Source: a virus (Duplodnaviria; Caudoviricetes). Taken from it: 34,969 nucleotides of DNA. The notes beneath the pieces are model-generated. The model did not search any database, had not been told where the DNA came from, and was given only the letters and a program-made list of their open reading frames with translations. The stretch is from the IMG/VR virus record IMGVR_UViG_3300030330_003007, positions 1 through 34,969 of that record, one strand, 5' to 3'. Shown in pieces: positions 100 to 28,826 of this stretch (the stretch's first letter is position 1; every line of letters starts with the position of its first letter). The position numbers and the translations under genes are program-made.

Positions 100-643
100 T
101 CTCGTTGTTTCTAGTTTTGTTGATGTTAATGACCATTTCCCTTTTTTAGATCAAAAAAAAAGGGATGACGATGAGGTCGGGCACGTAACGACGCCGACCC
201 CCTATAATGAGTTTGCATCGCTTGACGACCTTAAAGCCGCTTGTGAGTTTAACCGCGTACCTTGGGATGACGTCGTCGCGCTTGGCGCTCGATTAGGTGT
301 AAGTATCGAGCATCTCGGCGCGGAGCAAAAACGACTGTTTTTTTATACGTGGTGTATTCAAAATACGCTCAGAACGTCGAATCTTAAAGCAGGTTGGAAT
401 CGCAACTTAAGCGAAGCCCGAACCGTATTTCGACGCCTCAAGCAAGAATTTAAAAGCATCGCAAATATCGAGAATCGACATATCGGCGCGATACTAGGAC
501 ACCCGACCTTTTGGGAGTCGGCAAAAGTATCGGCAGCGTTCGACGGCGATGCGTTAAAAGAAGCACAAAACGAACTCGACAAGCTCGCAAAGAGCAAAGA
601 CCACGCGCCGTTATTGCCCTCTAGATTGTCCTCGTTGGGGTAA
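2..643 (+). CDS. C-terminal part of the RecT/Redbeta-like recombinase (continues from 34245 across the join)
   Basis: Frame open from 2 to TAA at 641-643 (PAPAPAPTPAPAPAPARPDDITF...LLPSRLSSLG*), in phase with the ORF leaving the right end; not in the supplied ORF track. Confidence 0.85.
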   Translation, partial: PAPAPAPTPAPAPAPARPDDITFNIRQDEDSNNLVVSSFVDVNDHFPFLDQKKRDDDEVGHVTTPTPYNEFASLDDLKAACEFNRVPWDDVVALGARLGVSIEHLGAEQKRLFFYTWCIQNTLRTSNLKAGWNRNLSEARTVFRRLKQEFKSIANIENRHIGAILGHPTFWESAKVSAAFDGDALKEAQNELDKLAKSKDHAPLLPSRLSSLG

Positions 644-892
644 GGGGGTGCGGGCCTTATAGTCGCGTTCACAAAGCACTTCGATACGAGTTACCGCGGC
701 GATTAGCACTTCAAGTTTTGACTCTAATGATTCAAATCGATTATCCCAACGAGATCCGCGGGCTTCAAGAGATGCGACTTGTTGCTTAAGCTTGCCGAGC
801 TCTTCAGCGGCCCGCGCCTTATCTTGAGTTCCTTTGATAATCATCGCGAGAATCGTGAGAATTACGCCAAGATCAACGCCGCTTACATCCAT
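611..892 (-). CDS. Small membrane protein, N-terminal TM plus coiled coil (holin/lysis-accessory-like)
   Basis: VDLGVILTILAMII hydrophobic segment then heptad-rich helix; last gene of the late run. Confidence 0.55.
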   Translation of the reverse strand: MDVSGVDLGVILTILAMIIKGTQDKARAAEELGKLKQQVASLEARGSRWDNRFESLESKLEVLIAAVTRIEVLCERDYKARTPLPQRGQSRGQ

Positions 893-893
893 A

Positions 894-1337
894 TCATAGG
901 CCCTTTACGATCAATATGCTTGTCGCTATAACTGCGACCGCGCCGGCGCTGTATACGCCGATTTTAAGCTTATCGCGCTTGGTGTTGAGCTCTTCAAGTT
1001 GCAACTTTAAAGCTTTATTTTGCTCATCATACGCGCGGATTAATTCGGCGTCATCTTGCTCGCGATCACTCACGACAACCGCGAGTTCGGCAGCGGATAA
1101 CGCACACTCAGTTGCCGCTTGATCGACTGCGGTTCGGCATAGGTTCGGCGAGTTGTGTGCGATGTCCTTCAACTGCAAAAACTGAGTTAATGTAACAGTC
1201 ATACAAAAACCCGTTTTAGAGTTGCATCGTGAGCGTTCGCCCTCAATCCGCGGCAAATGATCACCGAGGTTAATCACGTTCGCCGGCGTCGCGGGTAAAA
1301 GCGCTTGAAGTATGAAAAGAGCGCCGATCATGATCAA
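894..1337 (-). CDS. Cys-rich exported/membrane protein with coiled coil and C-terminal TM (spanin-like candidate)
   Basis: Signal-like N-terminus, 4 Cys, coiled coil, C-terminal IGVYSAGAVAVIATSILIV; ATGA overlap with upstream gene. Confidence 0.5.
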   Translation of the reverse strand: MIMIGALFILQALLPATPANVINLGDHLPRIEGERSRCNSKTGFCMTVTLTQFLQLKDIAHNSPNLCRTAVDQAATECALSAAELAVVVSDREQDDAELIRAYDEQNKALKLQLEELNTKRDKLKIGVYSAGAVAVIATSILIVKGL

Positions 1338-1648
1338 TCCTTACAAATCTCAGCGCATGAGGCGAGCGCTTGCGACACCCGCGCTTGAGTGATTGATTCA
1401 CAATCAAGAGCACAATCGCCCGCCCGTTTAGCTTCGCATTGTGTCAGCTTGATTTGAGAGTCGATTAGGTCGCGGTTTTGCTGTTCTGATTCGATTTTGA
1501 GCTCGTTTTTTTCAGTCTCAAAATGAGCAGTCGCCGACTTGATACCCTCGCGAGCTCCGACGATATACGCCCCCAAAATCAAGCCCGCGCCTAAACACGA
1601 GGCGCCTAAATATTTTAGAGCGTCTTTATTTACATTTAAATTAATCAT
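1334..1648 (-). CDS. N-terminal TM, coiled coil, Cys-rich C-terminus (Rz/i-spanin-like candidate)
   Basis: YLGASCLGAGLILGAYIVG TM, helical ectodomain, 5 Cys in last ~35 aa; ATGA coupling. Confidence 0.5.
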   Translation of the reverse strand: MINLNVNKDALKYLGASCLGAGLILGAYIVGAREGIKSATAHFETEKNELKIESEQQNRDLIDSQIKLTQCEAKRAGDCALDCESITQARVSQALASCAEICKD

Positions 1649-21168: not shown

Positions 21169-23094
21169 TTAGCCTCCGAACGCTTGATTGAATAATGATG
21201 GATCTTCGAGGCGCACGACATGAAGCGCCTCGCTATACTTAATCGACTTTTCAGTCGCGACTTGTTTGATACGAGCGTCAAGAGTCTGTTTATTAACCTC
21301 GGCACCGCTTGCCCCGTGCCCAACCTCAGCGAGTGGAACCGCGACCGCAGTACGCTCGCTAAAGTGTCGCCAAAATTCAGGCTGTAAGTCTCGAAGTTCG
21401 AAAGCTTTGCCCGCGACCTCAGTATCAGCGGGCGCGATACGGCCCTCGGAGAGTAGCGCGTTGACCGCTTGGTCGCGTTGCATCGCATCACGTTCGGCCT
21501 TAAGAGTTGCGACGGATTCACGAAGCGCTTGAACTTCAGAGAGTAGCGCGGGCGATGCCTGCTCACTCATGCGCTTATACTCGGTCATCTTCTTTTTCTC
21601 GTCGTCTTCCTCGGCGAGCTTGCGCTTATCCTCGTCGTCTTCCTCGGCGAGTTTGCGCTTATCTTCGTCGTCTTCCTCAGCGGCTTTATTAATCGCCGAT
21701 TCTGAGTCCGATTTCATCTCCTTAATTTTAGCTTCGAGTTGCTTGACCATCTCGTCCTTAGCTTCGAGCATCGCCCGCAACTCATCAACGCTCATGTCAT
21801 CCATGATGTTTAACCTCTCGTTTAGTGTGATGCGGTCGATTTGGTCGTGAGACTGAGCCGGCCGCGGGGTAAGTGTTACGGCTAACAATTGAGCCGCGCC
21901 GATGCGCTCGCCGCCTGAGCGGTCGAATACGTCACCGGTGAGGAATTCAGGCGACGACCAGAGGACACCGCCCGCGTTATTGACGACATCAAGGCCGCGC
22001 TCATTATATGCGGGCACGGCATACAGGCCGTCGTCACGTAATTCTAAATCAATGATTAGACCAAGCGCGTTTCCGCTCTCCGGCGGTGCCGGCGGCCCGC
22101 TTTGATACGGGCTCGTCGCGTGTTGCCAGTCGATGATAACGGGGTCGCGGTCGCGTCGCTCTCGATAGACCCTCAATAATTCAGAGAGTAACTCTTGATC
22201 GACCTCTTTGCCGATGCCGTCACCGGTGAGCCGAGACGATACAGGACCGAGCCCCAAAGTTTTAAACGGCTTACCGATGGTTAACCCGTCGGGCACTTCA
22301 TAAAGTGCGCTGAGTTGCGTTGATTCACCATAAGCGAGTGTATTAGTTTTTTCGTCTGCAGCGTTCATTTGACCTACAACTTTTCTAGCAAATGCGAAAC
22401 CGGCGTCGCCGCCCCAACCGTTCCACGCTTGCCAACCTTTGCCCTGATCCGACCACGTCGCGCCCTCTTTGTCGGATTCGTGACGAGTGAAATATGCAAG
22501 CATACGGCGCACGGTGTCGGGTGATAACTCACGACCGTTTTTAAGATCGCGAGCTCGTGCGATGCCGACGGGCGTCATACCTCTTTGAGATTGGGGTTTA
22601 GATTCGCGAACCTCTAAAGCCCGCGCCGCCGATTCTTGTGCGCCTTTTGGCGGAGTAAAATCGATATGAGAGTATTTAGCCGGCTCGCTTCGCTTTTCGA
22701 CGTGTTGCGGGTGTCCCTTTGGCAATAGATCCAAATCGCCCGTGTATGCCCGTTTGCGTTGCCCCGTCGCGACAAGCTTGAGAAACGTTCGAACGCGAGC
22801 GAGTGCCCACTGTGTGCGGTTCATGTTAGGTCGATGAGATACACTAAACGCGCCGGCCCCTCTTCTAAATACCGCTTTCAACATACCGAGGTCGACGCGC
22901 CGCGACTTCTTCGTGAATCGGGCGTTGTGCTCGTCTCTCAACTTTTCAAGAGACTTAACCGCTTTATCACTGATCTCGATACCACCCCGCGACCCACTCG
23001 CCGAGCCCTTCGGATTTTTTGCGCTGCCCTTGATGCGGTCGCGCTTTGGTGCGGGCGTTTGGGCCTTCGTGCGTTTGCGCTTAATCTTAACCAT
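21169..23094 (-). CDS. Multidomain prohead protease/scaffold (Mu gpI-like protease with two extra N-terminal domains)
   Basis: VIIDWQH, SPEF, LLAVTLTPRP Mu-like protease motifs; acidic coiled-coil C-terminus; basic N-terminal domains. Confidence 0.75.
   Translation of the reverse strand: MVKIKRKRTKAQTPAPKRDRIKGSAKNPKGSASGSRGGIEISDKAVKSLEKLRDEHNARFTKKSRRVDLGMLKAVFRRGAGAFSVSHRPNMNRTQWALARVRTFLKLVATGQRKRAYTGDLDLLPKGHPQHVEKRSEPAKYSHIDFTPPKGAQESAARALEVRESKPQSQRGMTPVGIARARDLKNGRELSPDTVRRMLAYFTRHESDKEGATWSDQGKGWQAWNGWGGDAGFAFARKVVGQMNAADEKTNTLAYGESTQLSALYEVPDGLTIGKPFKTLGLGPVSSRLTGDGIGKEVDQELLSELLRVYRERRDRDPVIIDWQHATSPYQSGPPAPPESGNALGLIIDLELRDDGLYAVPAYNERGLDVVNNAGGVLWSSPEFLTGDVFDRSGGERIGAAQLLAVTLTPRPAQSHDQIDRITLNERLNIMDDMSVDELRAMLEAKDEMVKQLEAKIKEMKSDSESAINKAAEEDDEDKRKLAEEDDEDKRKLAEEDDEKKKMTEYKRMSEQASPALLSEVQALRESVATLKAERDAMQRDQAVNALLSEGRIAPADTEVAGKAFELRDLQPEFWRHFSERTAVAVPLAEVGHGASGAEVNKQTLDARIKQVATEKSIKYSEALHVVRLEDPSLFNQAFGG
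21599..21678. repeat. 33-bp tandem repeat encoding AEEDDEDKRKL in scaffold region
   Basis: tcgtcgtcttcctc starts at 21599, 21632, 21665. Confidence 0.9.
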
Positions 23095-24505
23095 TTCTAC
23101 GACTCGCTATCAATTTCTCGGTAAGCGCGGAAACAGCACCACCCCCGCCGCCGGCGGCGACTCTTGAAAGCGGCGAGCGTTGTGCGTCTTCGGGTAGATC
23201 ACCCGCGCCGAGCCTTTCACGTATTGCGCGTTCAAGCTCATCGTCGGGAGTCAATAGCCCCGCTTGAACTAGCGCGGGCAACGCGGCGAGCGATTCGGCA
23301 AGGTCGTCGGTGTCTAGGCCGGTATGCGTCAATCTCGGCAGTTTCGACGGATCAACTAGTCCATAATTCCAACGAATCAACCGGCCAATTGTGCCGGCAC
23401 CTTGTCGATCAACACCGCTCACAGCCGACGCGACAATATCGCATAGATTAATCGCCGCACGTCTAAACACGCTAAGATGTATCTCACCGACCGACCGCGC
23501 CCCCGTTTCGGTGTTGCCCAGGTCGGCGAACTGAGTGAGAAAAGCGGCGCTGATTTGAGAGTCGCATTTTGTGATGATGTTGAGCGGGCCGTCGACGTGA
23601 AAATTATTAGCCGGCGAGTATGTGTCAAACTTAACCGCGGGGTTTTCAACGAGATAGGATTGTTCAGTCGCAAGTAGCGCTTGCGCTTGACCCTCACCCT
23701 CGTTAATCATCGCGTCGATATCGCCGTCGGTGAGTCCTAATGATTCCGCTTGTGATCTGTCGATAACGAGCTTAGGAGTCGGGATTGCCCAACGATCAGC
23801 AGCGACGCACATTAGATTTGAGATGCGCTGTTTCGTTCGCCAAAACCACCAAACCGGCCTCAACATGCCGATGCCTTCGAAATTCGAACCGGTCTTATTG
23901 AGCGTCAAAAGTAACAGCTTATTTGACGGTATAGGTTCGGCTTGCTTCGCCGTGCCGACGGTGTTTTGTAGAACACCATCAAGCGTTTGATTATCGCGAG
24001 ATAACCAACGTTGATGTGCACTCGGCTCGCGGTCGGCGTAATGCGATAACCATACGCGCACCCGCCCCGTCGAATCCGGCCCGACTCTATAACACTCCTC
24101 AGCGTACCGGTAACCGAGCGGTATAAACTGAAATAGATATTGTAGTTGGTCCTCCCATGATAGCGACATTTGACCCGCGTACCCGTCGAACCCCCAACAT
24201 TCATTAGCATAGCGGGCGAGCTCCTCGCTTACGACATCATTCTCGATACCCGCCTCAAATCGCCAAGATGCCGAGAGAAGTGTTTGTCTCAACATGTGCC
24301 AAGACCGCATAACAATCGGGTCGGTTCTAAGCATCTCCTCAGCTTCACGAACCCAATTTAAGCCGGTGAGTTTCGCATTTTGCTCGTAACCTGTAATCAC
24401 GCCGCCCGATAATTGAGTGCCGGTGATACCGCGAGTTTTGAAGCGCGGTGTCATCGCTCTAAAGTGTTTCGGTATGTCGTCGGGTCGGTGCATTGATGCC
24501 CCCAA
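23087..24505 (-). CDS. Portal protein (DUF935 / Mu gp29-like); start may be ATG at 24493
   Basis: NFEGIGMLRPVWWFW..K, DRWAIPTP, CDSQISAAFLTQF, GARSVGEIH, LIRWNYG motifs. Confidence 0.85.
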   Translation of the reverse strand: MGASMHRPDDIPKHFRAMTPRFKTRGITGTQLSGGVITGYEQNAKLTGLNWVREAEEMLRTDPIVMRSWHMLRQTLLSASWRFEAGIENDVVSEELARYANECWGFDGYAGQMSLSWEDQLQYLFQFIPLGYRYAEECYRVGPDSTGRVRVWLSHYADREPSAHQRWLSRDNQTLDGVLQNTVGTAKQAEPIPSNKLLLLTLNKTGSNFEGIGMLRPVWWFWRTKQRISNLMCVAADRWAIPTPKLVIDRSQAESLGLTDGDIDAMINEGEGQAQALLATEQSYLVENPAVKFDTYSPANNFHVDGPLNIITKCDSQISAAFLTQFADLGNTETGARSVGEIHLSVFRRAAINLCDIVASAVSGVDRQGAGTIGRLIRWNYGLVDPSKLPRLTHTGLDTDDLAESLAALPALVQAGLLTPDDELERAIRERLGAGDLPEDAQRSPLSRVAAGGGGGAVSALTEKLIASRRNG

Positions 24506-24579: not shown

Positions 24580-24627
24580 GCGTCGTTAAATGAGATCATC
24601 TTTTACATTCTGTAGTCTGTGACTAGA

Positions 24628-24696
24628 AAAGAGAAGTGGTCAAGTTTGGCCGCCTCATAGGGTGCCGGTTATCCGGCGGCTTGATCACTTCTCTTT
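24628..24696. terminator. Long hairpin (terminator or structured RNA) after the cyclase/2-TM cassette
   Basis: aaagagaagtggtcaag / cttgatcacttctcttt arms (16 of 17 complementary) plus inner gccgcc/ggcggc stem; starts a few nt after the stop at 24703. Confidence 0.65.
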
Positions 24697-24702
24697 AATA
24701 GT

Positions 24703-25164
24703 TTAGTCGCTACTCGGCAACCATTGTTCGACGGTCGGATGTAGCACAACACTCGACTCGTCGCGGGTTTTAACGACGTTCTCGCCACTAAACAAACTCA
24801 ATTTATCAATCACCGCTTGCTGAAGTTCGCTTTGCTGATCTCTCAATATTTGCATTTGTATTTGGGCATCACGTAAGCGACCGATGAGCGCGGCGCGGTC
24901 GGCGTTTGCGCTCGCTAACTTATCCTTGAGCTCTTCGACTTCTGACGGATCACGACCCGACGCTATCGCGACCATCGACGAGATAGAACCGGTGATCATA
25001 CCGAGGATACCGACGAGCACGTCTCGATTTTTCTCGACGATCTCGACATACGTTAAGAACAGAATCAAGCCGACGACGAGCGCCATAAAGAACACGCTAA
25101 ACCACCAACCGCGGCGGGCCTTCTCTGAACGCGTTAATTCTTTCTCGCTTGGTCGTTTATCCAT
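24703..25164 (-). CDS. 2-TM membrane protein with C-terminal coiled coil
   Basis: WWFSVFFMALVVGLILFLTYV and VLVGILGMITGSISSMVAIA segments, then ~45-aa heptad helix; overlaps cyclase stop by 8 nt. Confidence 0.8.
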   Translation of the reverse strand: MDKRPSEKELTRSEKARRGWWFSVFFMALVVGLILFLTYVEIVEKNRDVLVGILGMITGSISSMVAIASGRDPSEVEELKDKLASANADRAALIGRLRDAQIQMQILRDQQSELQQAVIDKLSLFSGENVVKTRDESSVVLHPTVEQWLPSSD

Positions 25165-25945
25165 CGTTTAGTACCCTCTTAACAATCGTCACGATAAACC
25201 GCAGCGGCGGCCAATGTGTCGACAAATAGGGCCATAATACAAAGAGGATGTAAACCGCGCTGATGATCGCGAGCCGAGGTAGTGACCACATGAGCCACTC
25301 GATAAGACGACGGTCGCGGGCATGACTGCGAATCGCTTTAGGCCCGCCGATGCGTTTTGCTTTCTCGGAGCTCGGCGGCGGCTGTAATGATCTGATATCG
25401 CTGCCGACTGCGTATATGATGCGAGCGCCTGAAACGCCCTTGAACTTATACAACCCGACTTGAGCGTATCGAGTATGTCGCGGGGTGTCGCGGTTCGTTC
25501 GATTCCGGATTGCGTTGAACGCCTCGGCGGTGAGAAGCACTTGACCCGATCCGCAAAGAGACATCACCCGCGCCGTGATATTCTTAGCGACCCCTTCGAG
25601 CTCAACCGGTTTAGCGCCGACCATTACGTCAAGCTCGCGTTGCGTAACCTCGGCGACGGTGCCGACGTGTATGCCGATTCTAGTATTTAGCCCTGTCTTG
25701 CGGGGTATCGTTGACTGATAATGAAGCGCGAAATTGACGGCGTTGATAGTCTCCTCAAACGAGATCAAAAACCCGTCGCTTCGGTCGATCTCGCGACCGT
25801 TGAACTTGAACATAAGCGAGCGTGTTAGCCGGTCGTGATATTGTAGCCACTCGGCGGCCTTCGTATGCCCGACGCGCTGAACGAATCGAGTTGAGCCGAT
25901 AAGATCAAGTAGGACGATGGAAAGCTCTCGGGTTTTGATTTGCAT
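25157..25945 (-). CDS. Class III nucleotidyl (adenylate/guanylate-type) cyclase with C-terminal TM anchor
   Basis: IVLLDLIGST (Asp1), DRSDGF (Asp2), RIGIHVG, G..KNITARV (Asn/Arg), GQVLLT, KFKG; C-terminal LAIISAVYILFVLWPYL. Confidence 0.9.
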   Translation of the reverse strand: MQIKTRELSIVLLDLIGSTRFVQRVGHTKAAEWLQYHDRLTRSLMFKFNGREIDRSDGFLISFEETINAVNFALHYQSTIPRKTGLNTRIGIHVGTVAEVTQRELDVMVGAKPVELEGVAKNITARVMSLCGSGQVLLTAEAFNAIRNRTNRDTPRHTRYAQVGLYKFKGVSGARIIYAVGSDIRSLQPPPSSEKAKRIGGPKAIRSHARDRRLIEWLMWSLPRLAIISAVYILFVLWPYLSTHWPPLRFIVTIVKRVLNDG

Positions 25946-27050
25946 TTAGTCCTCCCCATAACACTCTAAACGCTCGTTCAGCGGTTGCGGGCACAACTCC
26001 GTTTCCAAGCAATCGCAGTTCACTAACTCGATTATCCAAGGATCCGCACAACTCGGCATAACCCAACCGACCGGCAGCCCCATCAGCAACTCTACCCATC
26101 TCGGGTTTAATTTCGGTCGTGACTCGTGGCGGTTCAAATGGTCGCTGTTTTGATCCTCGCGGGGCGGGATATGCGTTTGCATGTTTAAAGTAAGTGTTCG
26201 GTGCATACCGTTCGACCGATACGCTCGCCCGCTGCCCGACCAAGGTGCCCCCGTTTTCGAGTACAACTTTTCTTGATTTGTGCCCGCAGTCGTGGCCGGC
26301 GTAATCCATAAACCTTGTATCGGTTGCACTTGATTTTCCAACCTCGTCAAATACCGTTTGTTCGTTCGGTCGCCGCCGCCCGCCGGCGCTTTCGACATGT
26401 CGGCCCGCGGGGTAATCCATGCTTCTCCGCTTTGAGTCTCGGAGCATTCTGGAAACGATATCGCACCCTGAGTCATTAAGATCGGCGCGGCGAGCCAGTA
26501 TGAAAACCCGCTTTCTTTGATGGGGTGCGCCGACTTCAGCCGCACTGAATATTCCCGCCGTCGCGTTGTAGTCCATTCGCTCCAATTCTCGAAGGACATG
26601 TAACAAAACCGGCGTTGATTCGGGGTCGCTCCATCCGTCGCTTTTAAGTCGGCTGCTAATGATCCCCTCGACGTTTTCGAGGAAAACAAGGGGAGGTCGT
26701 CCCAATTCAGCGAGTCCTTTAACGATGTACGGCCATAGATGCCGCGGGTCGGCGTCGGCGTCTCCTTTCCCGGCAACACTAAATGGTTGACAAGGGAAAC
26801 CGCCGCTGACGATGTCAACGCAGTTTCGAAAGCTTGACCATGCGAAGGTTTTAATATCCGTCCAAATAGGCGCCACGTCGAGCAAGTTGTTTTCAACCTT
26901 CGCGACCAAGTTCTCGACGGCGAAGGCTTCGATTTCCACATAAGCGACCGCGCTGATATTTCCGAGAGCCCGTTTAAGTCCGATATCAATGCCGCCGTAT
27001 CCGGTGCAAAGTGAGAGATGTCTAAGTTTTCGGGAATTATCCACATTCAA
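25905..27050 (-). CDS. DNA (cytosine-5) methyltransferase, catalytic frame (start TTG 27050 or GTG 27044)
   Basis: Motif I LSLCTGYGG, IV GGFPCQPFS, VI ENV, VIII HQRKRVF, X LGNGVV; motif IX not seen in this frame. Confidence 0.92.
   Translation of the reverse strand: MNVDNSRKLRHLSLCTGYGGIDIGLKRALGNISAVAYVEIEAFAVENLVAKVENNLLDVAPIWTDIKTFAWSSFRNCVDIVSGGFPCQPFSVAGKGDADADPRHLWPYIVKGLAELGRPPLVFLENVEGIISSRLKSDGWSDPESTPVLLHVLRELERMDYNATAGIFSAAEVGAPHQRKRVFILARRADLNDSGCDIVSRMLRDSKRRSMDYPAGRHVESAGGRRRPNEQTVFDEVGKSSATDTRFMDYAGHDCGHKSRKVVLENGGTLVGQRASVSVERYAPNTYFKHANAYPAPRGSKQRPFEPPRVTTEIKPEMGRVADGAAGRLGYAELCGSLDNRVSELRLLGNGVVPATAERAFRVLWGGLNANQNPRAFHRPT
25946..27046 (-). CDS. Overprinted second-frame methyltransferase subunit (TRD-like repeats plus motif IX)
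   Basis: 366-codon open frame, ATG directly after the TerL stop and TAA directly before the cyclase ATG; WITP x2 and RPKLNPRWVELLMGLP (motif IX-like). Confidence 0.7.
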   Translation of the reverse strand: MWIIPENLDISHFAPDTAALISDLNGLSEISARSLMWKSKPSPSRTWSRRLKTTCSTWRLFGRILKPSHGQAFETALTSSAAVSLVNHLVLPGKETPTPTRGIYGRTSLKDSLNWDDLPLFSSKTSRGSLAADLKATDGATPNQRRFCYMSFENWSEWTTTRRREYSVRLKSAHPIKESGFSYWLAAPILMTQGAISFPECSETQSGEAWITPRADMSKAPAGGGDRTNKRYLTRLENQVQPIQGLWITPATTAGTNQEKLYSKTGAPWSGSGRAYRSNGMHRTLTLNMQTHIPPREDQNSDHLNRHESRPKLNPRWVELLMGLPVGWVMPSCADPWIIELVNCDCLETELCPQPLNERLECYGED

Positions 27051-28426
27051 AACGACCTGCTTTTACTTGTACCGACGCGCACCCGACGCGAGCTCGGCGC
27101 GGACGCGGTGTACTGTCTGCGATCTACTAACGTCTCGCCCCAATTCCACGTAATACAATCGTATCTTAAAGCGTCCAAAGGATCTTCGCGCCCGTCCTTT
27201 TTGGGTAATTCTTTATTGTCCCAACCGTAACTTAAAAGCGCTTTGCGTATCGAGTTACCCGTCGCCCGTTCGCCGGCGGTCCATACCTCGCGAGTAATCC
27301 GATATTGACCACGCGCAAACGCCCGCTTCAATCGTTGAACACCGTTTAAGATGTCGGTGCGTATCGGGTCGGTATTGCTCCTAAGCGGCATACCTAAACC
27401 CCGCGGCGGGTCGGCCCTCATCGCCCGAAATGCCGACCGGCCGGTTTGATCATTACGAGCCCGACCGGCCTTATCGGCGACCCCATAATCGAGCCAGATA
27501 CGCGAAGACGGTGCGCGATCCTTTAGCGACCTAGGCCACGCGACGCACAGTATCAACCGCGCTAACTCTTCGACAGTGACCTCGGCGGGGTTCATCTCAG
27601 CGGCGATCACGTCGGCACCTAAAGCGGGGTCGTGTACGATGATGAGCACCGACGGCTTACGAAAACCCCAATCAATCGCGATGCGCCCGCTCATGCTCGG
27701 ATGATAAACCCAATCATCTAAAACGTGTTCATCTTCGCGAAACTCCGAATAGACTAAACCCGACGGCGGGCGGGGCTTATTCATTACCATCGCTTCGCGC
27801 TCTTCGGGGGGTAACAGCTTAGTCGCCTCGAACCAAGCTTCGGATAGATTCGCTTCGTTGACGTACGACGAATAGAGAAGGGGCTTACACCCCGCGGTTT
27901 CTGCTAACTGTACCCACCATGCCCCCGACACCGGCAACCCGACGAGGATCATAATTGGCGATGGACCCGACCGAAGACGACCGAGCGCTTTTTGTGCGAC
28001 TTCTGATGTAAGCGTTTGGCACTCATCAACTAGACAAACCCCGCTTGTGATGTTGAGCCCCTCTAGAGGATTGTGAGTCGTGTCGCGGGTATTGGGTCGG
28101 AAGTATGCACGGCACCAAACCGACGACTTCGTTTCGGGGTCGAACCACTTGCGAAGCGTATGGTTATACGTCCAACCGATAGCACCTAACCATTTTTGCA
28201 TTTCGGGCATGAGAACGGATTGATAACGCGGGTTTGTATCAGTGATGAGTAGCGACGATGTCGCGGGGCGAGCTTGCGAAACGTAAAGCAACGCGAAGAC
28301 GAGCGCCGCCGTTTTACCCGAACCCCAACCGCACCGCGCCGCTATCACTCGTTGATCGCAGGTGATCGCGGTTATGATCTCGCGTTGAAGCGGATTTAAC
28401 TTAATCCTCGTCGGCGGGTTCGTCAT
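27047..28426 (-). CDS. terL: Terminase large subunit
   Basis: Walker A GWGSGKT, Walker B CLVDE, RNase H-like AIDWG and DPLDALRY; ATG 28426 has GAGG upstream. Confidence 0.92.
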   Translation of the reverse strand: MTNPPTRIKLNPLQREIITAITCDQRVIAARCGWGSGKTAALVFALLYVSQARPATSSLLITDTNPRYQSVLMPEMQKWLGAIGWTYNHTLRKWFDPETKSSVWCRAYFRPNTRDTTHNPLEGLNITSGVCLVDECQTLTSEVAQKALGRLRSGPSPIMILVGLPVSGAWWVQLAETAGCKPLLYSSYVNEANLSEAWFEATKLLPPEEREAMVMNKPRPPSGLVYSEFREDEHVLDDWVYHPSMSGRIAIDWGFRKPSVLIIVHDPALGADVIAAEMNPAEVTVEELARLILCVAWPRSLKDRAPSSRIWLDYGVADKAGRARNDQTGRSAFRAMRADPPRGLGMPLRSNTDPIRTDILNGVQRLKRAFARGQYRITREVWTAGERATGNSIRKALLSYGWDNKELPKKDGREDPLDALRYDCITWNWGETLVDRRQYTASAPSSRRVRVGTSKSRSF

Positions 28427-28826
28427 CGGTTGACGCCTCGTTGTTTGATTCGATGTCGCTGCGTAACTGATCAATCATATCTCGCACGATGTCGGCACCC
28501 GACGAGCTCGAATTGCTTACATTTAATTCTACTTCTCGTCGATCGCTCCATTCGTCCGGCGCGACATTTCTTAAAAATGTGTGAGCGGATCGCCAATCAC
28601 CTTTTAAGCCTTCTTGGATAAGCACATTAGTCATGAGCGCTTGTGGTGTTGTACGAGCCGCGGCACATTCTAAAGTCCACTCTCCTTCGGGGCCGGACTC
28701 TTCAAGCCAATTATAATATGTTTGTCGCGAAATGCGAGCTTGACCGCAAGCGGCTTTAATTGTTAAGCCGGCCCGCAGATCATTTAATAATTGATCTTGT
28801 TTTTGCTCTTTGACTTTTTGGTCCAT
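28401..28826 (-). CDS. terS: Terminase small subunit
   Basis: N-terminal HTH (TIKAACGQARISRQTYYNW), GDWRSA..FL...P.EW motif, overlaps terL start. Confidence 0.75.
   Translation of the reverse strand: MDQKVKEQKQDQLLNDLRAGLTIKAACGQARISRQTYYNWLEESGPEGEWTLECAAARTTPQALMTNVLIQEGLKGDWRSAHTFLRNVAPDEWSDRREVELNVSNSSSSGADIVRDMIDQLRSDIESNNEASTDDEPADED

Follow-up and report, generated by a model that had tools for sequence, protein, structure and literature searches.

A membrane-anchored class III nucleotide cyclase and a two-helix coiled-coil protein as a candidate cyclic-nucleotide module of tailed phages

The cyclase and partner genes

The stretch of DNA analysed here, called the window, is 34,969 nucleotides (nt) long and makes up the whole of the virus record IMGVR_UViG_3300030330_003007, which is rated complete. 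It encodes a tailed phage, with terS, terL, a Mu-type portal gene, protease, capsid and tail genes and an endolysin gene on the minus strand, and the entire stretch is present in two marine metagenome runs, which may be its source; no RNA data set was listed for it, which bears in no way on expression. Two genes between the large terminase subunit (terL) and DNA methyltransferase (MTase) genes on one side and the portal gene on the other are the subject of this report. The first encodes a 262-residue class III nucleotide cyclase with a C-terminal transmembrane (TM) helix, and the second, directly downstream, a 153-residue protein with two TM helices and a coiled coil, hereafter called the partner (Table 1). 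The open reading frames (ORFs) of the two genes overlap by 8 nt (ATGGATAA), each has a ribosome-binding site, and 41 nt at the cyclase start are shared with the MTase frame. An original prediction, made from the sequence letters, had described both ORFs, their 8-nt overlap and their place between terL/MTase and portal; the ORFs were found as described, and annotation of the window proteins places the pair at that position. Neither the cyclase nor the partner matches any of 50,697 annotated phage records, and therefore there is no cultured host. The module formed by the two genes is real, widespread and strongly selected, and its parts are of known kinds.

Fold and catalytic residues of the cyclase

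Residues 10-198 of the cyclase match the NCBIfam family TIGR04510 over profile positions 8-204 (E 1.6e-43) with 149 bits, below the curated cut-off of 400, and there is no TPR region in the 262 residues. A profile search of the Protein Data Bank (PDB) with the cyclase finds Rv1900c (E 3e-12). The AlphaFold model, with a predicted local distance difference test (pLDDT) value of 85, is matched by Foldseek to Rv1900c (PDB 1ybu) and Ma1120 (5d0e) with E 3e-14 and a TM-score of 0.91 on the target, and gives 188 matches at E <=0.001 in all. The window cyclase has no match in Pfam, PHROG or PADLOC; PF00211 is found on many of its homologues. As judged from fold and residues, the phage protein is a class III cyclase and not a TIGR04510 member.

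The cyclase carries the metal-binding residues D14 and D57, the motif N122-I-T-A-R126 and a hydrophobic helix near its C-terminus, so that the enzyme class, both metal Asp residues, the NITAR motif and the C-terminal TM helix of the original prediction are borne out. D14, D54, D57, K112, K121, N122 and R126 are kept in all 31 phage rows of the alignment, which are the window protein and 30 representatives below 85% identity. Because D14, D57, N122 and R126 are invariant, the protein quite probably has enzymatic activity of some kind. The position of N122 is taken by P, A, S, L or V in 200/200 non-phage rows (three sets of 50, 120 and 30, between which slight overlap is possible), and the catalytic Asn occurs only in phage rows. 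The hydropathy of the C-terminal helix reaches 1.6 in 25 of the 30 representatives, and the net charge ahead of it is +4 to +9 in 28 of them; this basic linker predicts a cytoplasmic catalytic domain.

The nearest non-phage relatives share the motifs IDRSDG and GAKxxExEGxxK. All of the longer relatives that were examined carry fused TolB/TPR, STAND NTPase-TPR, kinase or TM-TPR parts, so the phage enzyme stands alone, without a sensor, tethered to the membrane and with its catalytic residues complete. A tree rooted at the midpoint only, with 18 of the 31 phage rows and 52 non-phage rows, unites the phage domains in a single clade (100/100), to which no particular group is sister. The cyclase family comprises 674 clusters at 90% identity. 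Other viruses encode unrelated class III domains, which appear as BFVD matches at 8-19% identity. On the cellular side, one Rubrivivax metagenome-assembled genome (MAG) holds at least seven paralogues of the cyclase clade (loci L083, L088, L097, L098, L101, L119 and L125), most of which continue into a P-loop NTPase region, a lineage-specific expansion.

Linkage and selection of the pair

Each linkage scan covered the best 80 of 90-282 matches, a sample that leans to close relatives. The partner lies directly downstream in 76 of the 80 best viral cyclase loci, the other four ending within 32 nt, and the cyclase lies upstream in 78 of the 80 best partner loci, the remaining two starting within 92 nt of a contig end. 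When 271 viral and metagenome loci were pooled, 161 unique cyclase loci remained, among which the partner is directly downstream in 142, 12 are cut by a contig end and seven were flagged. Two of these seven have the partner directly upstream, that is, in reversed order; two have it behind inserted genes, 1.4 and 4.1 kb downstream, one of them on a 255-kb contig; and three are on contigs that end 0.7-1.2 kb past the cyclase. A partner is nearby in 146 of the 149 informative unique cyclase loci. The original prediction had made its idea of a conserved membrane cyclase and 2-TM module depend on the co-occurrence of homologues, which is thus near complete across phage loci. The paired phage contigs span 35 kb to 255 kb and 26-63% GC. 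The median ratio of nonsynonymous to synonymous substitution rates (dN/dS) over 27 pairs is 0.066 for the cyclase and 0.033 for the partner, and both genes are under strong purifying selection. In a scan of the Genome Taxonomy Database (GTDB), no phage-type pair was found in any genome; the best identity was 43%, and the partner lies beside 0/53 loci. The notion of a pair that is obligate both ways was rejected: it holds for the cyclase and is false for the wider partner family.

Other genes recur near the pair. A metallothionein-like Cys-rich peptide of 53-97 residues lies upstream in 29/127 loci (for example L005, L039, L067 and L073) and spans several phage types, with none in the window or in the other 98 loci; it was rejected as a defining part of the module because it is not family-wide. 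Purine genes occur a few kb from the pair in large phages, namely purB and a GMP reductase gene (L503:12735-16250) and purA with purB (L539:5145-7302), and a purA-like start is seen in L503 too. In 16 large-phage loci (L070-L080, L222, L487, L488, L491 and L495), another holin-like 2-TM gene, marked by an SKKF motif, is found no more than 1.2 kb from the cyclase start.

Structure and history of the partner

The partner has two TM helices followed by a long helix with a heptad pattern in which 10 of 15 a/d positions are hydrophobic, in agreement with the 2-TM/coiled-coil architecture first proposed for it. Its model consists of three helices, the two TM helices and a 54-residue coiled coil, with no beta strand (predicted TM-score 0.29), and in this model there is no room for a nucleotide-binding domain. 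A fold search with the model gave generic helical matches only (best Z 7.0). The partner is the only small window ORF with two closely spaced TM helices, among nine TM-positive of 44 ORFs, and has the layout of a small holin, namely 1-3 TM helices and a charged tail. The window partner matches no described holin family; one of 32 relatives matches the holin/anti-holin family phrog_5871 (E 0.0036). Against the SLATT profile it scores 16 bits, with a cut-off of 26.5. SLATT_fungal matches occur in 27/30 partner relatives at E <=0.1 (best 3.4e-5), AbrB matches occur in the same 27/30, and an identity as SLATT effector was rejected as a generic 2-TM match. The invariant core of the partner (N46, D48, GRDP, DRxxLIxRLRDxQI and W148) is common to sister proteins from cyclase-less phages, and the cyclase-linked clade has large-to-small swaps of its own in the second TM helix. 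The family comprises 1,478 clusters at 90% identity.

The wider partner groups come from a profile search of 1.8 billion representatives; a viral scan with the single protein P0292 returned nothing, whereas alignments of 5-9 sequences gave matches. The near sisters of the partner share 41-51% identity with it and belong to phages whose terL is 59-66% identical to that of the window. No cyclase was found in 211 distant-partner loci or in ten sister phage records, four of them rated complete; the search of records was positive in 5/5 controls. A tree was built from 22 cyclase-linked proteins, 12 of 24 sisters and 16 of 125 short proteins; in it the cyclase-linked partners group together as a single clade (100/100), whose long branch lies among those of the sisters. 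The simplest history on this tree would be a single recruitment of the cyclase, followed by the spread of the pair; loss of the cyclase in the sisters is not excluded, as there is no firm root. Because sister phages carry the partner without a cyclase, the partner appears to be older than the pairing, and the original view of it as a dedicated effector does not hold. Because the invariant core is common to the cyclase-less copies, a role as scaffold or regulator is more likely for the partner than one as receptor. In L404, L406, L413 and related sister loci, the partner still flanks terL, which is inverted there, so that both groups keep the partner at the packaging region.

More distant relatives of 110-140 residues are homologous to the partner (HHalign 99.6% over 111 columns). 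Their setting was counted with hidden Markov models in 101 unique loci with 1 kb of flank on each side, 24 of 125 having been dropped for lack of flank. These short relatives abut an M15 peptidase or amidase endolysin gene in 46 of the 101 loci and have one within 1 kb in 54; by bands of endolysin distance the counts are 37, 4 and 0 of 70. The link to lysis-type membrane proteins that was suspected from the start is thus upheld at the level of the family.

Substrate and kinship to XC_0250

The base used by class III cyclases is specified by a pair of residues, Lys/Asp for ATP and Glu/Cys for GTP. D54 of the phage cyclase aligns with the Lys of Ma1120 and with the Glu of its GTP-complexed KDA-to-EGY mutant, which points to guanine. 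The alignment also has a one-residue deletion ahead of D57. A cyclase of the same sub-clade, XC_0250 of Xanthomonas campestris, converts GTP to cyclic guanosine monophosphate (cGMP) and has no activity on ATP, according to the accessible part of PMC3770947. All six XC_0250 residues named in that part stand at the stated numbers in 18 of the 30 top TIGR04510 proteins, when the numbering is laid on these proteins with the second metal Asp as residue 71; XC_0250 was matched by residue numbers, not by sequence. Several of the TIGR04510 proteins are 875-885 residues long, compared with 886 given there for XC_0250. A GGDEF-motif gene adjoins 30/30 cellular TIGR04510 loci.

In this numbering, D28 rather than D41 becomes the first metal Asp of the TIGR04510 proteins at L542-L571, and the Asn/Arg sites fall on P141/R145 instead of L157/A161. 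The residue roles published for XC_0250, as far as they are given in the accessible part of the paper, look misaligned in this comparison; no retraction or correction notice was found for PMC3770947. On the strength of the acidic residue at the Lys/Glu base site and the kinship to XC_0250, the chances that cGMP is the product are put slightly above even. Since cGMP is more likely than cyclic adenosine monophosphate to be the product, complementation of E. coli delta-cya, which had been suggested as a check, may give a false negative.

Comparison with known systems

The cyclase shares with XC_0250 and the TIGR04510 proteins the sub-clade with its IDRSDG...GAKxxExEGxxK motifs, a TM helix after the domain and the equivalents of D54, K112, E115, K121 and R126. 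However, the phage protein ends just past the TM helix, where TIGR04510 proteins continue into a TPR region; it has Asn where these have Pro; and it is encoded beside a 2-TM protein, whereas TIGR04510 genes lie beside a gene for a GGDEF protein with a cyclic nucleoside monophosphate (cNMP)-binding domain. The mycobacterial adenylyl cyclases Rv1900c (LipJ) and Ma1120, the best structural match, have the same compact fold and metal Asp pair. They differ in overall sequence (about 25% identity) and at the first base site, where the phage enzyme has Asp in place of Asn or Lys, and the phage enzyme is membrane-anchored and phage-encoded. Cellular cyclase-STAND-TPR, cyclase-TolB-TPR and cyclase-kinase proteins of Rubrivivax, Sumerlaeota and others belong to the same domain clade at 30-47% identity, but are multi-domain, mostly soluble and without the catalytic Asn.

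The two-gene layout of a cyclase and a membrane protein is also that of Pycsar (PycC and PycTM) and Pucsar (PucC and PucTM). The effectors of these systems join a nucleotide-binding domain to three TM helices or to TIR, and Pucsar uses cGMP as antiphage messenger, as described in the accessible parts of PMC11224242 and bioRxiv 10.64898/2026.08.12.744502. Their cyclases are described there without a membrane anchor, whereas the phage cyclase is anchored; they are cellular defence loci, whereas the phage pair belongs to a conserved phage gene set with a partner older than the cyclase. PycC matches occur in 6/30 cyclase relatives (best 4.8e-5), such as any class III domain may give, and PycTM matches in 2/30 partners at E 0.012 or worse. 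Membership in Pycsar was rejected, because the partner lacks a nucleotide-binding domain and no cellular genome was found to carry the pair. The difference from Pycsar noted at the outset stands, with no cNMP-binding domain (CNBD) in the partner model, no PF00027 match and only weak PycTM matches. The description of the Pucsar effectors, as far as it is accessible, sets the pair apart from Pucsar as well.

Lysis-cassette proteins of phages (phrog_9990-like, of holin/antiholin type) are homologous to the partner over the 111 columns mentioned above; unlike them, it is a longer protein, encoded at the packaging genes and cyclase-linked. For none of these lysis-cassette proteins was a tested function found. 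By analogy, the closest counterpart of the phage pair in mode of action would be a receptor guanylate cyclase, here divided between two genes. A literature search that covered few subscription journals turned up neither the pair nor any cyclase of the same type encoded by a phage, and the accessible part of PMC7824862 names no cNMP cyclase.

Target and host

PF00027, the cNMP-binding domain, was found in none of five phage records (the window and four larger ones, two of them complete), and for this reason the receptor is likely to be a host protein. No GGDEF match was found among 40 window proteins. In two loci of other phages (L075:7267-7965 and L080:7290-7961), the gene directly upstream of the cyclase encodes a homologue of MtsC, a myxobacterial MYXO-CTERM cell-cohesion protein. 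The MtsC matches (E 2e-50 and 5e-47) are partial and below the cut-off, and were found in four loci, the window not among them. They suggest Myxococcota hosts. Look-ups of clusters yielded no useful host names.

Proposed mechanism and alternatives

The best explanation of the locus as a whole, to which we give somewhat less than an even chance, is that the partner scaffolds a late membrane source of cGMP that acts on host receptors. Late expression is inferred from the place of the pair between terminase and portal. In this model, both proteins would sit in the host inner membrane with their soluble parts in the cytoplasm, as the positive-inside rule predicts, and the cyclase would make cGMP there late in infection. 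The partner, as the older late membrane protein, would use TM packing and its coiled coil to cluster and switch the cyclase, and the coiled coil would replace the sensor and dimerising domains that all cellular relatives have in cis. The cGMP of the dimeric cyclase would then act through cNMP receptors of the host, possibly one of the Myxococcota, and tune envelope state or lysis timing. The observation on which the original prediction was built is confirmed by these analyses, and its interpretation is partly supported.

Several observations weigh against this model. D54 and E115 at the base site are both acidic and form neither the Lys/Asp nor the Glu/Cys pair; E115, at a position where adenylyl cyclases have Asp, is present in 26/31 phage rows and is not invariant. 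Of 142 paired loci, 110 have the pair between terL and portal and the other 32 have it in different settings. Co-divergence of the two proteins is modest, with rho 0.56 for cyclase and partner compared with 0.72 for partner and terL, and a partial rho of 0.29 for cyclase and partner (p 0.003, 33 loci). In L077, a divergent cyclase stands beside a partner that groups with those of L503 and L495, from which it appears that partners can be swapped between cyclases. At the partner gene, the four complete genomes without a cyclase hardly differ, and they represent about one lineage. As to lysis, a 3-TM holin lies within 1 kb of the short relatives in 38/101 loci, so that these relatives need not be holins themselves; only 6/142 paired loci are within 1.5 kb of a window-type endolysin, the distance in the window being 18 kb; and 0/19 of the nearest cyclase-less sisters lie beside an M15 or amidase endolysin and 1/24 beside one of the window type. 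The host lead consists of two distinct MtsC-like genes in other phages, and two partner homologues are filed under Bathyarchaeota MAGs, which are possibly mis-binned viral contigs. Furthermore, the cGMP assignment leans on one paper (PMC3770947) whose accessible residue assignments seem misaligned.

The partner could instead be a holin or antiholin gated by the cyclase TM helix or by cGMP, which would tie lysis time to GTP status. The short relatives that abut endolysins, the closely spaced TM helices unique among the small window ORFs, the six pairs near an endolysin, the additional holin-like 2-TM gene of 16 large-phage loci and the single phrog_5871 match speak for a holin. Yet most pairs lie between terL and portal, the window partner matches no holin family and has no ligand-binding domain, and sister phages have it without a cyclase, so that this alternative is doubtful, if to be taken seriously. 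A counter-defence role, in which a flood of non-cognate cNMP or poisoned host cyclase dimers would blunt immunity while the partner merely anchors, is less probable and must be called unlikely. It draws on the many close cellular relatives of the cyclase-STAND-TPR type, expanded in Rubrivivax, on the proposal that the STAND-fused clade is immune-related and on the use of cGMP as antiphage messenger in Pucsar (both in the accessible part of bioRxiv 10.64898/2026.08.12.744502). However, conservation across phage types is very high (60-65% identity, dN/dS <0.07), unlike that of most arms-race genes, the pair belongs to a late operon, the phage clade does not fall within the STAND-fused group, and cGMP would activate rather than block the Pucsar effector.

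Defence of the Pycsar kind or superinfection exclusion, with a cNMP opening a pore of the partner and killing or depolarising cells hit by a competing phage, is quite improbable. The layout of a cyclase and a small TM gene with translational overlap fits it, as do the weak SLATT_fungal matches of 27/30 partners and the weak PycC matches of 6/30 cyclases. The partner model is nevertheless all helix without a CNBD, the PycTM matches are few and poor, the equally frequent AbrB matches indicate that the SLATT match may be generic, none of the 53 GTDB loci carries the partner, and the partner occurs without the cyclase. Even slighter is the chance that the cyclase fold makes no 3',5'-cNMP and serves as a nucleotide-binding regulator or in other chemistry: the non-canonical base site, the deletion ahead of D57, an NCBIfam name that points to peptide modification and the Cys-rich peptide upstream in 29/127 loci are set against invariant catalytic residues including the Asn, the cGMP activity reported for XC_0250 of the same clade (PMC3770947, in its accessible part) and the absence of the Cys-rich peptide from the window and 98/127 loci. 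It is equally improbable that the two genes are late membrane genes that travel together by co-transcription alone, with no functional link. The partner alone in sister phages and the modest co-divergence would agree with this; the linkage, however, survives order reversal, insertions and transfer across phages of 35-255 kb and 26-63% GC, and no cyclase was found without a nearby partner where the DNA sufficed, three of 149 loci ending early.

A bolder form of the scaffold model, held tentatively, is that phages of marine myxobacteria may have grafted a sensor-less guanylate cyclase with all its catalytic residues onto a holin-family protein, giving a second-messenger switch that couples the state of a lysis protein to cGMP signalling. 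Such a switch, an equally tentative reading, might time lysis or reprogram the host, and the two genes of the module would have spread together, from phages of 35 kb up to jumbo phages.

Phages that destroy or sequester nucleotide messengers are known; no conserved phage gene pair that produces a messenger for the phage's own late cycle turned up in the literature searched. The module is widespread in the sea, with an Atlas cluster of 1,722 members, 99% of them viral, and is small enough for tests in E. coli, and the sister phages with the partner alone offer a natural comparison with and without the cyclase. It also offers a way into a little-known cyclase clade in which the catalytic Asn is missing from the cellular members. 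New here are the sister group without a cyclase, the single clade of linked partners, the reversed gene order, the Asn signature and the host lead from MtsC. If true, coupling of lysis timing to cGMP would be a new control layer on lysis.

Hairpin and neighbouring genes

A long hairpin follows the partner stop codon directly. Its arms (24622-24644 and 24680-24702) are 87% complementary, and its z of -6.5 for 90 nt is well above chance. Compensatory change is seen in 6/24 hairpin pairs among four close relatives. An invariant loop motif (window 24650-24680, minus strand) occurs once in the window and in 13/571 loci, several of which are copies of the same contigs and one of which is a two-mismatch match in a bacterial locus. 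The hairpin has no Rfam match; the promoter and terminator scan was at chance level and did not call it a T-tailed terminator. It may be an RNA processing site or a protein-binding element. As a defining part of the module it was rejected, since the sequence is limited to the closest relatives; the closing hairpin of the original prediction is therefore real but not module-wide.

Table 1 Features of the cyclase-partner locus and its surroundings in the window
Feature	Position	Strand	Remarks
Cyclase gene	25157..25945	-	262 aa; membrane-anchored class III; XC_0250/TIGR04510-type domain without sensor domains
Partner gene	24703..25164	-	153 aa; 2-TM and coiled coil; phage-wide family, weakly phrog_9990
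GGAGG ribosome-binding site	25951..25955	-	5 nt ahead of cyclase ATG
Cyclase catalytic domain (putative)	25352..25945	-	about aa 1-198; metal Asp D14, D57; base site D54, E115; K112, K121; transition-state N122, R126
Cyclase C-terminal TM helix	25217..25273	-	aa 225-243, preceded by basic linker
Partner TM hairpin	24964..25101	-	aa 22-40 and 49-67; N46-x-D48 loop
Partner coiled coil	24787..24948	-	aa 73-126, predicted cytoplasmic; core DRxxLIxRLRDxQI
Long hairpin directly past partner stop codon	24622..24702	-	confined to closest relatives
C5 DNA methyltransferase, variable insert	25905..27050	-	overlapping second frame 25946-27046
Terminase large subunit	27047..28474	-	context
Mu-type portal	23087..24505	-	context
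Endolysin of the phage itself	5819..6478	-	about 18 kb from the cyclase-partner pair

The second MTase frame (minus strand) is full-length, and its C-terminal end matches a methyltransferase PHROG. Both MTase frames occur together in 15/15 paired loci with an MTase, and their starts are at most 4 nt apart in 14 of these. This recalls M.EcoHK31I with its two-frame alpha/beta arrangement. At the end of the late region (window 611-1648, minus strand), three small membrane-anchored coiled-coil genes have a spanin-like layout and no family match. The head protease gene (window 21169-23094, minus strand) carries DUF5824 and phrog_2859 domains fused at its N-terminal end.

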